Positions 33,001 through 39,000 of a DNA stretch of 64,000 bases are shown here, piece after piece. Position 1 is the first letter of the stretch. Each line of letters begins with the position of its first letter. Source of the stretch: Escherichia coli (lineage in GTDB: Bacteria; Pseudomonadota; Gammaproteobacteria; Enterobacterales; Enterobacteriaceae); assembly GCF_003018255.1 (NCBI RefSeq), contig NZ_CP027440.1; one strand, written 5' to 3'. Position numbers: made by a program.

Positions 33001-36000
33001 GATGAAAACCTTCCGCTGGAAAGTGAAACCCGGTATGGATGTGGCTTCGGCCCCTTCCGTAAGAAAGGTGCGCTTTGGTGATGGCTATTCTCAGCGAGCG
33101 CCTGCCGGGCTGAATGCCGACCTGAAAACGTACAGCGTGACGCTTTCTGTTCCCCGTTGGGAGGCCACGGCGCTTGAGTCGTTTCTGGCTGAGCACGGGG
33201 GCTGGAAATCCTTTCTGTGGACGCCGCCTTATGAGTGGCGGCAGATAAAGGTGACCTGCGCAAAATGGTCGTCGCGGGTCAGTATGCTGCGTGTTGAGTT
33301 CAGCGCAGAGTTTGAACAGGTGGTGAACTGATGCAGGATATCCGGCAGGAAACACTGAATGAATGCACCCGTGCGGAGCAGTCGGCCAGCGTGGTGCTCT
33401 GGGAAATCGATCTGACAGAGGTCGGTGGAGAACGTTATTTTTTCTGTAATGAGCAGAACGAAAAAGGTGAGCCGGTCACCTGGCAGGGGCGACAGTATCA
33501 GCCGTATCCCATTCAGGGGAGTGGTTTTGAACTGAATGGCAAAGGCACCAGTACGCGCCCCACGCTGACGGTTTCTAACCTGTACGGTATGGTCACCGGG
33601 ATGGCGGAAGATCTGCAGAGTCTGGTCGGCGGAACGGTGGTCCGGCGTAAGGTTTACGCCCGTTTTCTGGATGCGGTGAACTTCGTCAACGGAAACAGTG
33701 ACGCCGATCCGGAGCAGGAGGTGATCAGCCGCTGGCGCATTGAGCAGTGCAGCGAACTGAGCGCGGTGAGTGCCTCTTTTGTACTGTCCACGCCGACGGA
33801 AACGGACGGCGCTGTTTTTCCGGGACGTATCATGCTGGCCAACACCTGCACCTGGACCTATCGCGGTGATGAGTGCGGTTATCACGGTCCGGCTGTCGCT
33901 GATGAATATGACCAGCCGACGTCCGATATCACGAAGGATAAATGCAGCAAATGCCTGAGTGGTTGTAAGTTTCGCAATAACGTCGGCAACTTTGGCGGCT
34001 TCCTTTCCATTAACAAACTTTCGCAGTAATCCCATGACACAGACAGAATCAGCGATTCTGGCGCACGCCCGACGATGTGCGCCAGCGGAGTCGTGCGGCT
34101 TCGTGGTGAGAACGCCGGAGGGGGAAAGATATTTTCCCTGCGTGAATATCTCCGGTGAGCCGGAGAAGTATTTCCGGATGTCGCCGGAGGACTGGCTGCA
34201 GGCAGAAATGCAGGGTGAGATTGTGGCGCTGGTCCACAGCCACCCCGGTGGTCTGCCCTGGCTGAGTGAGGCCGACCGGCGGCTGCAGGTGCAGAGTGAT
34301 TTGCCGTGGTGGCTGGTCTGCCGGGGGGCGATTCACAAGTTCCGCTGTGTGCCGCATCTCACCGGGCGGCGCTTTGAGCACGGGGTGACGGACTGTTACA
34401 CGCTGTTCCGGGATGCTTATCATCTGGCGGGGATTGAGATGCCGGATTTTCATCGTGAGGATGACTGGTGGCGTAACGGTCAGAATCTCTATCTGGATAA
34501 TCTGGAGGCCACAGGGCTGTATCAGGTGCCGTTGTCATCAGCACAACCGGGCGATGTGCTGCTGTGCTGTTTTGGTTCATCGGTGCCGAATCATGCCGCC
34601 ATTTACTGTGGTGACGGCGAGCTGCTGCACCATATTCCTGAACAACTGAGTAAACGAGAGAGGTATACCGACAAATGGCAGCGACGCACACACTCCCTCT
34701 GGCGTCACCGGGCATGGCACGCATCTGCCTTTACGGGGATTTACAACGATTTGGCCGCCGCATCGACCTTCGTGTGAAAACGGGGGCCGAAGCCATCCGC
34801 GCACTGGCCACACAGCTCCCGGCGTTTCGTCAGAAACTGAGCGACGGCTGGTATCAGGTACGGATTGCCGCACCGGCAGCGCCGTCTCGGATTGAGCTGA
34901 CACCGGGCTATTTTCAGATAACCGCCACGCCGCATCTTGCGGTTTATGATCCGACGGTACAATTTGAGTTCTGGTTCTCGGAAACGTGGATTACCGATAT
35001 CAGGCAGGTTGAAACCACAGCCCGCTACCTTGGCACGGGGCTGTACTGGATAGCCGCCAGTATCAATATCAAACCGGGCCATGATTATTACTTTTATATC
35101 CGCAGTGTGAACACCGTTGGCAAATCGGCATTCGTGGAGGCCGTCGGTCGGGCGAGCGATGATGCGGAAGGTTACCTGGATTTTTTCAAAGGCAAGATAA
35201 CCGAATCCCATCTTGGTAAAGAGCTGCTGGAAAAAGTCGACCTGACGGAGGATAACGCCAGCAAACTGGAGCAGTTTTCGAAAGAGTGGAAGGATGCTAA
35301 CGATAAGTGGAATGCCATGTGGGCTGTCAAAATTGAGCAGACCAAAGACGGCAAACATTATGTCGCGGGTATTGGCCTCAGCATGGAGGACACGGAGGAA
35401 GGCAAACTGAGCCAGTTTCTGGTTGCCGCCAATCGTATCGCGTTTATTGACCCGGCAAACGGGAATGAAACGCCGATGTTTGTGGCGCAGGGCAACCAGA
35501 TATTCATGAACGACGTGTTCCTGAAGCGCCTGACGGCCCCCACCATTACCAGCGGTGGAAATCCACCGGCATTTTCCCTGACACCGGACGGAAAGCTGAC
35601 TGCTAAAAATGCGGATATCAGTGGCAGTGTGAATGCGAACTCCGGGACGCTCAACAACGTCACGATTAATGAGAACTGTCAGATTAAGGGGAAACTGTCA
35701 GCCAATCAGATTGAAGGCGATATTGTCAAAACGGTCAGCAAGTCTTTCCCCCGCACGAACAGTTATGCCAGTGGCACCATCACGGTAAGAATCAGTGATG
35801 ATCAGAAATTTGACCGGCAGGTCATGATACCGCCAGTGTTATTCCGCGGTGGTAAGCATGAGAATTTCAACAGTAATAACCAACAGTCATACTGGTATTC
35901 AACCTGCCGGTTAAGAGTGACCCGCAATGGTCAGGAGATTTTTAATCAGTCCACGACGGATGCTCAGGGCGTATTTTCCTCAGTTATAGATATGCCTGCC

Positions 36001-39000
36001 GGACAGGGGACGCTGACACTGACATTCACCGTATCTTCATCAGGAGCGAATAACTGGACACCAACAACCAGTATCAGCGATCTGCTGGTTGTGGTGATGA
36101 AAAAATCCACAGCAGGTATCAGTATCAGCTGAATTTTATAACCCAGAACGGGCGTCAGAAATGACGCCTTTTTTATTGCAGAAAAGCGAGAGGTAATTAT
36201 GCGTAAACTTTATGCCGCCATTTTGTCCGCAGCCATTTGTCTGGCCGTATCCGGTGCGCCTGCATGGGCATCTGAACATCAGTCCACGCTGAGCGCGGGG
36301 TATCTTCATGCCCGGACCAACGTTCCCGGCAGTGATGATCTGAACGGGATTAACGTGAAATACCGTTATGAGTTTACGGATACGCTGGGGCTGGTGACGT
36401 CATTCAGCTATGCAGGAGACAAGAATCGCCAGCTGACCCGTTACAGCGATACCCGCTGGCATGAAGATTCCGTGCGTAACCGCTGGTTCAGCGTGATGGC
36501 GGGGCCGTCTGTGCGCGTGAATGAATGGTTCAGCGCGTATGCGATGGCGGGTATGGCTTACAGCCGTGTTTCGACTTTTTCCGGGGATTACCTTCGCGTA
36601 ACTGACAACAAGGGGAAAACGCACGATGTGCTGACCGGAAGTGTTGACGGTCGCCACAGCAACACGTCTCTGGCGTGGGGGGCTGGCGTGCAGTTTAACC
36701 CGACCGAATCCGTGGCCATTGATGTCGCTTATGAAGGTTCCGGCAGTGGTGACTGGCGCACTGACGGGTTCATCGTGGGTGTTGGTTATAAATTCTGATT
36801 AGCCAGGTAACACAGCGTTATGACAGCCCGCCGGTTCAGGCGGGCTTTTTTGTGGGGTGAATATGGCAGTAAAGATTTCAGGTGTACTGAAAGACGGCAC
36901 AGGAAAACCGGTACAGAACTGCACAATCCAGCTGAAAGCAAAACGTAACAGTACCACGGTGGTGGTGAACACGCTGGCCTCAGAAAATCCGGATGAAGCC
37001 GGGCGTTACAGCATGGACGTTGAGTACGGTCAGTACAGCGTTATTCTGTTGGTGGAGGGATTCCCGCCGTCACATGCCGGGACCATCACCGTGTATGAAG
37101 ATTCTCAACCCGGTACGCTGAATGATTTTCTCGGTGCCATGACGGAGGATGATGCCCGTCCGGAGGCACTGCGTCGTTTTGAACTGATGGTGGAAGAGGT
37201 GGCGCGTAACGCGTCCGCGGTGGCACAGAACACGGCAGCCGCAAAGAAGTCAGCCAGCGATGCCAGCACATCTGCCCGTGAGGCGGCAACCCGTGCGACT
37301 GATGCTGCAGGCTCAGCACGCGCAGCCAGCACGTCAGCCGGACAGGCCGCGTCGTCGGCTCAGTCAGCGTCTTCCAGCGCAGGAACGGCATCAACAAAGG
37401 CCACTGAAGCATCAAAAAGTGCTGCCGCTGCTGAGTCCTCAAAAAGCGCGGCGGCCACCAGTGCCGGTGCGGCGAAAACGTCAGAAACGAATGCGGCAGC
37501 GTCACAACAATCAGCAGCCACTTCTGCATCCACCGCGACCACGAAAGCGTCAGAAGCTGCCACCTCAGCCCGGGATGCGTCGGCTTCAAAAGAGGCGGCA
37601 AAATTATCAGAAACGAGCGCAGCCTCGAGCGCCAGTAGTGCAGCCTCCTCGGCAACGGCAGCAGGCAATTCCGCGAAGGCGGCCAAAACGTCTGAGACAA
37701 ACGCTAAGTCCTCTGAAACGGCAGCAGAACAGAGTGCCTCCGCAGCAGCAGGCTCAAAAACAGCGGCTGCATTATCTGCCAGTGCCGCGTCAACAAGTGC
37801 CGGGCAGGCCTCAGCCAGTGCCACCGCCGCCGGAAAATCGGCAGAAAGTGCTGCATCGTCTGCTTCAACAGCCACAACGAATGCTGGCGAAGCCGCTGTA
37901 CAGGCCAGCGCAGCAGCGAGGTCTGCTTCCGCAGCGAAGACATCCGAGACGAACGCGAAAGCGTCGGAAACCAGCGCAGAATCCTCAAAAACGGCTGCCG
38001 CATCGTCCGCCAGTTCGGCGGCGTCATCGGCATCATCTGCGTCTGCTTCAAAAGATGAGGCGACCAGACAGGCGTCAGCAGCAAAGGGCAGCGCCACGAC
38101 GGCATCCACGAAGGCGACAGAGGCAGCTGGCAGTGCGACGGCGGCAGCTCAGAGCAAAAGTACGGCGGAATCCGCGGCAACGCGCGCCGAGACAGCGGCA
38201 AAACGGGCAGAGGATATTGCATCCGCCGTGGCGCTTGAGGATGCGAGCACGACGAAAAAGGGGATAGTACAACTCAGCAGTGCGACTAACAGCACTTCCG
38301 AGTCACTGGCGGCAACGCCAAAAGCCGTTAAGGCCGCGTATGAGCTGGCTAACGGGAAATACACCGCACAGGATGCAACGACAGCACAGAAAGGGATAGT
38401 TCAGCTTAGCAACGCGACCAACAGCACATCTGAAATGCTGGCGGCAACGCCAAAGTCGGTAAAGGCAGCCTATGACCTTGCTAACGGGAAATATACTGCT
38501 CAGGACGCTACGACAGCACAAAAAGGAATTGTCCAGCTCAGTAGTGCAACCAACAGCGCATCTGAAACGCTTGCCGCGACACCGAAAGCAGTGAAAGCAG
38601 CTAATGATAATGCGAATGGTCGGGTACCTTCTGCCCGTAAGGTGAATGGTAAGGCGCTTTCATCGGATATAACACTGACGCCGAAAGATATTGGTACGCT
38701 TAACTCAACAACAATGTCATTCAGCGGTGGTGCTGGTTGGTTCAAATTAGCAACGGTAACCATGCCACAGGCGAGTTCTGTTGTTTCAATTACGTTGATT
38801 GGTGGCGCGGGATTTAACGTGGGGTCACCTCAACAGGCAGGTATATCTGAACTTGTTTTGCGTGCAGGTAATGGTAATCCGAAGGGGATTACTGGTGCTT
38901 TATGGCAGCGCACATCGACAGGGTTTACAAATTTTGCCTGGGTCAATACATCTGGTGATACTTACGATATTTACGTTGCAATCGGAAATTATGCGACTGG

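Follow-up and report, generated by a model that had tools for sequence, protein, structure and literature searches.

The stretch of DNA analysed here, referred to as the window, comprises 64,000 nucleotides of Escherichia coli (NCBI RefSeq assembly GCF_003018255.1, contig NZ_CP027440.1) and carries a lambda-like prophage that is integrated at icd, the window beginning inside the integrase gene. Phage 21 and e14 also integrate in icd. In the late operon of the prophage, between gene K and lom, a single open reading frame (ORF) is found that consists of residues 1-65 of the tail protein gpI joined in frame to residues 710-1132 of gpJ; residues 66-223 of gpI and 1-709 of gpJ are absent. An initial annotation had described this ORF as about 65 residues of lambda I running directly into the C-terminal third of J, with a junction near position 34870 and about 700 N-terminal residues of J missing, and had proposed pairwise alignment with lambda I and J to map the breakpoint. 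This alignment was run and bears out the description in each respect: the part missing from J amounts to 709 residues, in addition to those lost from gpI, and the breakpoint maps to the 10-bp stretch 34861-34870.

The two parts of the ORF are readily assigned. In tblastn searches residues 1-66 of lambda I match positions 34675-34872 with 98.5% identity (E = 8e-41), and residues 710-1131 of lambda J match positions 34861-36126 (E reported as 0.0). The first 65 residues of the fusion protein are identical to those of lambda gpI. At the nucleotide level, blastn aligns lambda 1-14968 to positions 19904-34870 (98.5%) and lambda 17622-18461 to positions 34850-35690 (93.9%). The J-derived part is also recognized in known structures: PDB entry 9wca ('A8 gpJ 713') aligns nearly perfectly to fusion residues 66-485, including the divergent receptor-binding end described below, while residues 700-1131 of the lambda J structure 8iyk_J align to fusion residues 53-484. 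Judged by these alignments, the resemblance of the fusion ORF to lambda I and J is not due to chance.

A search with a 10.4-kb query around the ORF against complete E. coli genomes reveals more than 20 genomes that carry the same prophage segment with a full 223-residue I and a full 1132-residue J. In the best 18 of these the identity is 99.8-100%, and the alignment is always split in two pieces, spanning 13,073-13,075 bp versus 10,401 bp in the window. The sister segments are thus 2,672-2,674 bp longer than the window, and exactly 2,673 bp longer in the two that were compared base by base. These two sister segments come from E. coli 07-4299 (CP027462; segment L003) and E. coli JNE23-011 (AP045067; segment L004); in both, the annotation shows tail assembly protein I as intact and gpJ with 1132 residues.

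The junction in the window consists of a single copy of the direct repeat CGGATTGCCG. In lambda this sequence occurs twice, at 14959-14968 in I and at 17632-17641 in J, with a spacing of 2,673 bp or 891 codons. It is likewise present at two places 2,673 bp apart in both 07-4299 (L003 5062-5071 and 7735-7744) and JNE23-011. A three-way alignment shows that the window follows I to the left of its only copy and J to the right. The organization is that of a deletion between direct repeats, i.e., a parent with the repeat at both ends and a product with one copy and no inserted bases. In I as well as in J, CGGATTGCCG is read in the same phase, as Arg-Ile-Ala, so that the reading frame continues across the fusion.

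The direction of the change can be derived from the sister prophages. The window is identical (100%) to the 07-4299 segment up to position 34870, and removal in silico of one repeat copy and the intervening DNA from that segment reproduces window positions 29800-40600, a stretch of 10,801 bp, except for a single mismatch. Because near-identical sisters carry full-length I and J and this removal reproduces the window, the short form is the derived one, so that the fusion is, as had been proposed, the product of a deletion; the comparison with related intact prophages that had been suggested alongside it is the one given above. The opposite reading, that the ORF is the full-length homolog of a naturally short central fibre, had been named in the initial annotation as the result that would speak against a deletion. 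Such a gene would account for the absence of interruptions from the ORF and for the completeness of its FNIII-2, shaft and receptor-binding domains. It is at odds with sisters of 99.8-100% identity on either side in which I and J are both complete (the two examined base by base being longer by exactly 2,673 bp), with a Lambda_tail_I domain that is cut at position 51 of the 83 positions of the model, and with the occurrence of the short form in none of 5,426 complete genomes. This reading was rejected, and its probability is considered negligible. The features of the region are collected in Table 1.

Table 1. Features of the I-J region and of the surrounding late genes; positions refer to the window and residues to the fusion protein, unless stated otherwise.
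Feature	Location	Strand	Description	Basis
Late genes nu1, A, W, B, C, D, E, FI, FII, Z, U, V, G, T, H, M, L, K	20093..34777	+	aligned end to end with lambda, 95-100% identity, no gaps	tblastn
I'-'J fusion ORF	34675..36132	+	ATG start, 485 aa + stop	ORF list, tblastn with lambda I/J, comparison with sister I/J
Gene I-only part (codons 1-62)	34675..34860	+		blastn vs lambda, 98.5%; Pfam
Alternative in-frame GTG start of I	34774..34776	+	overlaps K stop codon (GTGA)	sister annotation, sequence
Deletion junction, single copy of direct repeat CGGATTGCCG	34861..34870	+		lambda, sister and window comparison
Gene J-derived part (J residue 713 to stop)	34871..36132	+		Pfam, PDB alignment, sister J comparison
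Lambda_tail_I	residues 14-65		model positions 2-51 of 83, truncated	Pfam
Ig_J_second (FNIII-2)	residues 69-171; 34879-35187		complete	Pfam
Private C-to-T substitution	34987..34987	+	CGG to TGG, R to W at fusion residue 105 = J residue 752	sister comparison
Phage_Tail_Tip, fibre shaft	residues 198-325; 35266-35649			Pfam
Ig_GpJ_C, receptor-binding domain	residues 361-485; 35755-36129			Pfam
lom	36199-36798	+	single ORF, 199 aa	
stf	36857-39778	+	single ORF, 973 aa	
tfa	39778-40362	+	full-length gapless alignment to lambda tfa	

The single mismatch in the comparison with the 07-4299 prophage is a private substitution at position 34987, which lies within FNIII-2, a domain that is kept, at a distance of 117 bp from the junction. 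The resulting change, R752W, is also the only difference between the J-derived part and residues 710-1132 of the sister J. As a single site, this substitution may be tied either to the deletion event or to relaxed selection.

The length of the gpI portion depends on the start codon of I. In the lambda record I starts at an ATG overlapping K by 103 nucleotides (223 residues; position 34675 in the window), whereas in the RefSeq annotation of the sister prophages it starts at the in-frame GTG over the K stop codon (190 residues; L003 4975-5547). A GTG start would leave just 32 gpI residues in the fusion. The longer ATG form is favoured, because the Pfam match starts at residue 14, upstream of the GTG.

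In lambda, gpJ is built from a series of hub domains followed by FNIII-1, FNIII-2, a helical shaft, a central straight fibre and the receptor-binding domain, and the hub domains HDII, HDII insertions, HDIII, HDIV and OB form the tail-tip cone (PMC11101478). Of gpI, the part that is resolved inside the tip starts at residue 101 or 135; it comprises two hydrophobic helices, a plug (residues 159-175) and strands that add onto the gpJ hub sheets (PMC11101478, PMC10721106). None of the hub is left in the fusion, which lacks J residues 1-709 and gives no Pfam match to a hub domain. Of the two FNIII/Ig domains only the second is present, FNIII-1 being located in the deleted part. The gpI moiety is similarly incomplete: the match to the N-terminal Lambda_tail_I domain breaks off within the model, and helices H1 and H2, the plug and the gpJ-binding C-terminal strands are all absent with residues 66-223. 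The distal part of gpJ is retained, as is evident from the Phage_Tail_Tip and Ig_GpJ_C matches and from the alignment with 9wca_J.

The extreme C-terminus of the J-derived part had been described in the initial annotation as different from lambda J, and it is: the identity to lambda J is 94% in FNIII-2 and 93% in the shaft, and 40% over the last ~135 residues. The same divergent C-terminus is present in the intact sister prophages and in PDB entry 9wca. In addition, phages PhiR29_2, PhiR30_1, 2H10 and Turner and Salmonella phage SPF_0923 carry this allele without a break from J across lom into the start of stf (96.5-97.8% identity). A second rearrangement as the origin of the divergent end was therefore dismissed, given its uninterrupted presence in isolated phages, in the sisters and in 9wca. 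On these comparisons the end is a natural allele of J that also occurs in isolated active phages and is unrelated to the deletion. In PhiR29_2 (PV340557.1; L002 3893-7289) J is annotated as two overlapping coding sequences, 3893-5884 and 5862-7289, which suggests a frameshift or sequencing error in an otherwise active phage.

Outside I and J the late genes are intact. The head genes and the tail genes from Z to K, including the tape measure gene H, as well as tfa, are full length with respect to lambda. The lom and stf genes are uninterrupted; they are diverged alleles that give no end-to-end alignment with those of lambda. The lom-stf-tfa region (36199..40362) is 100% identical to that of a sister prophage. 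The head, tape measure and fibre genes had also looked intact in the initial annotation, and no lesion other than the I-J deletion is seen in the late operon. Because the deletion is in frame, no polar effect on lom, stf and tfa would be expected.

The deletion appears to be both rare and recent. A junction-spanning sequence is found in 0 of the 5,426 complete E. coli genomes. An exact search with the junction 29-mer gives no match in genome_contigs, viral_contigs and metagenome_contigs, collections with one genome per species or non-E. coli material, so that the zero says little beyond rarity, and an exact look-up of the 485-residue protein among ~15 billion sequences returned none. When an 80-residue peptide with the junction at its centre was used as query, one match spanning the junction was obtained, P0001 (MBF5686446.1), which starts at the GTG at position 34774. 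This protein is encoded on a 205-bp contig (JABKHR010000317.1) of the draft E. coli assembly GCA_015392265.1, and the contig is identical to positions 34770-34974 of the window. The allele thus looks rare.

The sequence of JNE23-011 is collinear with the entire 64-kb window, from which it differs by ~13 single-nucleotide polymorphisms (SNPs), one 1-bp indel and two structural differences, i.e., the I-J deletion in the window and a 10.9-kb insertion in the portal gene that is present only in JNE23-011. The latter splits portal gene B (L005 13424-24335; AP045067 1836924-1847837) and encodes an integrase, a primase, SSB, a major capsid protein, a head decoration protein and a small terminase; judged by these genes, it is apparently a phage satellite of the capsid-forming kind. 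At the insertion point the two pieces of the alignment share 13 bp (positions 23560-23572), and here the window has an empty site and an intact 533-residue portal gene. In exo (positions 1803-2483, minus strand) JNE23-011 has T and the window C at position 2245; the JNE23-011 gene is annotated as a pseudogene with an internal stop, and the window ORF is full length (226 residues). The exo stop and the portal insertion of JNE23-011 differ from the lesion in the window, so that decay of this prophage proceeds independently in closely related strains.

The rarity of the junction raises the question of whether the deletion might be an artefact of assembly or sequencing, or stem from a minority subpopulation of the sequenced culture. 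The absence of the junction from the complete genomes and from the three large collections would fit such an origin, and lambdoid tail genes are repeated within genomes (J-like sequences occupy a median of 4 places in the complete E. coli genomes having any), which may confuse assemblers. On the other hand, the exact junction is present on the 205-bp contig of a separate draft assembly, and this second public record argues against an artefact of the assembly of the window alone. Both end points coincide exactly with a 10-bp direct repeat of which a single copy remains, and no bases have been added, a hallmark of genuine biological deletions; repeats of 10 bp are too short to make an assembly collapse, and both flanks match one and the same sister prophage (100% identity, with the one mismatch at 34987). 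An artefactual or subpopulation origin is therefore regarded as very unlikely.

Taken together, the data indicate, with a high degree of confidence, that a single recent deletion of 2,673 bp between the two copies of CGGATTGCCG, in an otherwise complete lambda-like prophage, gave rise to the in-frame I(1-65)-J(710-1132) fusion, by which the prophage would have become tail-defective. The deletion removed one copy of the repeat together with everything between the copies in I and J, and the likely route would be replication slippage or another RecA-independent, microhomology-mediated event. Several points weigh against this interpretation or parts of it. A 10-bp repeat is unexceptional here: 44 different 10-mers recur in the K-I-J region, versus ~14 in shuffled sequences, and the longest repeat is 12 bp. 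As such repeats are common in the region, CGGATTGCCG explains the location of the ends and not the cause of the deletion; with these same counts the notion of the site as a special deletion hotspot was dropped. Replication slippage, single-strand annealing after a break and unequal sister-chromatid exchange cannot be told apart by sequence. The draft assembly GCA_015392265.1 might represent the same strain or lineage, in which case its independent value is that of a second sequencing and assembly record. Finally, the loss of tails is deduced from structural data together with the pathway by which lambda tails are classically held to assemble.

As to the consequences for the phage, the lost segment of gpI (residues 66-223) comprises the predicted membrane helices, the plug and the gpJ-contacting strands, and the lost segment of gpJ (residues 1-709) all hub domains and FNIII-1, which together build the tail-tip cone on which the tail assembles. 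Since every gpJ hub domain and the tip-resolved gpI segments are deleted, no working tail tip is expected, in agreement with the initial annotation. That the tail tip cannot form and that infectivity is lost is a strong inference from the domain comparison. Without a tail-tip complex containing J and I, lambda tail assembly does not start. As in defective prophages, an essential virion gene is inactivated, since the J hub and most of I are missing. On induction, replication, packaging of DNA into heads and lysis would still be expected, and tails and infectious particles would not be formed; a second lambdoid prophage resident in the cell could conceivably provide tails in trans.

The J-derived part of the fusion may fold by itself. 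The gpJ713 construct (lambda J residues 713-1132; PDB entries 8XCK and 8XCJ) is on its own a soluble trimer that binds LamB with a KD of 1.76 nM, and the J part of the fusion starts 3 residues before this construct (at 710-713). By analogy, it would be expected to fold as a free trimeric, receptor-binding fibre that is not built into a virion. This raises the possibility that the fusion is a functional product retained by selection, either as a free fibre that blocks the receptor or as a subunit of mixed trimers that poison the J of related phages. Arguments in its favour are the folding, trimerization and nanomolar receptor affinity of gpJ713, the solved structure of the same receptor-binding allele as 'A8 gpJ 713', the preserved reading frame, and the existence of other in-frame I-J and I-Tfa fusions, one with 52 member sequences. 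If true, fusion protein made on induction of its own or a co-resident prophage might shield sister cells or poison the tail assembly of competitors, and the fusion would mark an early stage in the recruitment of a tail-fibre module by the host rather than simple decay. However, no more than one further public record contains the allele, as would be expected of a very young event that has not been under selection; one in three random deletions keeps the frame; the protein would be made only when the late operon is expressed, and thus only in cells that are already bound to lyse; and the retained part carries the private R752W substitution. Selection for such a function is accordingly regarded as very unlikely, and a role as a free receptor-binding fibre, for which the retained fold is the support, has the same low probability. 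The fusion protein is probably a functionless by-product.

The I-J deletion, as the most plausible reading of the locus, is a further instance of the well-documented process of prophage decay, of which it provides a clean, datable snapshot. The different private lesions in near-identical sister prophages imply that independent inactivating events accumulate quickly. For annotation, the label 'fibronectin type III family protein' should give way to that of a disrupted I/J pseudogene fusion, and the prophage should be counted as tail-defective.

Several further features of the prophage were observed. At its right end a 217-bp partial duplicate of the icd 3' end is present (positions 45442-45658), which is 94.5% identical to the intact icd of JNE23-011. 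By the repressor region lie two genes (4493-5539 and 5533-5994, both on the minus strand), a Ser/Thr protein kinase gene that matches the PADLOC families PD-T4-6 and mad6 (E = 8e-49 for mad6) and, following it, a gene that is annotated as RuvC family in the sister genome; on the basis of these matches the pair likely represents a prophage-borne anti-phage module. Cargo genes between tfa and the right prophage end (40466-44972) encode DUF2971, DUF4236, a hypothetical protein and DUF3800, and the DUF2971 gene matches the PADLOC candidate PDC-S31 (E = 1e-20). In the cargo region the window differs from JNE23-011 by an extra G at 41428 and a SNP at 41214.

Other fusions of gpI to downstream tail genes have a comparable architecture. 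P0103 is a 97-residue in-frame I-J fusion with 52 member sequences, consisting of the gpI N-terminus and the last ~60 residues of J, and is found at positions 6001-6294 of both L009 and L010, which are JGI metagenome contigs. It is located in a degraded remnant (L, K, fusion, lom) adjoining ribosomal L31/L36 paralogue genes and an invasin-like gene. In P0076 gpI is joined to the C-terminus of Tfa. P0103 and P0076 share with the present ORF the in-frame fusion of the gpI N-terminus to a downstream tail gene through a deletion in the tail-tip/fibre region. They differ in their breakpoints and in the larger size of their deletions, and P0103 lies in a heavily degraded remnant (L009), in contrast to the otherwise complete prophage described here.

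With respect to known structures, gpJ713 and 'A8 gpJ 713' (PDB entries 9wca and 9wcb) contain the same domains as the J part of the fusion, i.e., FNIII-2, the helical shaft, the central straight fibre and the receptor-binding domain, and the receptor-binding end of 'A8 gpJ 713' is identical to that of the fusion (positions 35755-36129). Unlike these designed constructs, the fusion arose by deletion, and it carries 62-65 additional N-terminal residues of truncated gpI (29-32 with the GTG start) as well as R752W.

Genetic precedents exist for both the phenotype and the event. From Katsura's work on the tail assembly pathway, amber and deletion mutants of lambda J and I are reportedly tail-defective. 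The prophage shares with these mutants the loss of J and I function, and the same tail-less, DNA-filled heads and rescue by tails supplied in trans would be expected; it differs in that the in-frame deletion arose naturally, in the prophage of a wild E. coli, is known here from its sequence, and leaves a chimeric I'-'J protein. Deletions between short direct repeats in lacI of E. coli are said to have been described by Farabaugh, Albertini and Miller. The I-J deletion resembles the lacI deletions in that its ends lie on a perfect short repeat, of which one copy is kept, with no filler bases. Unlike in lacI, the span of 2.7 kb is at the long end for a 10-bp repeat, and the mechanism is here deduced from the product.

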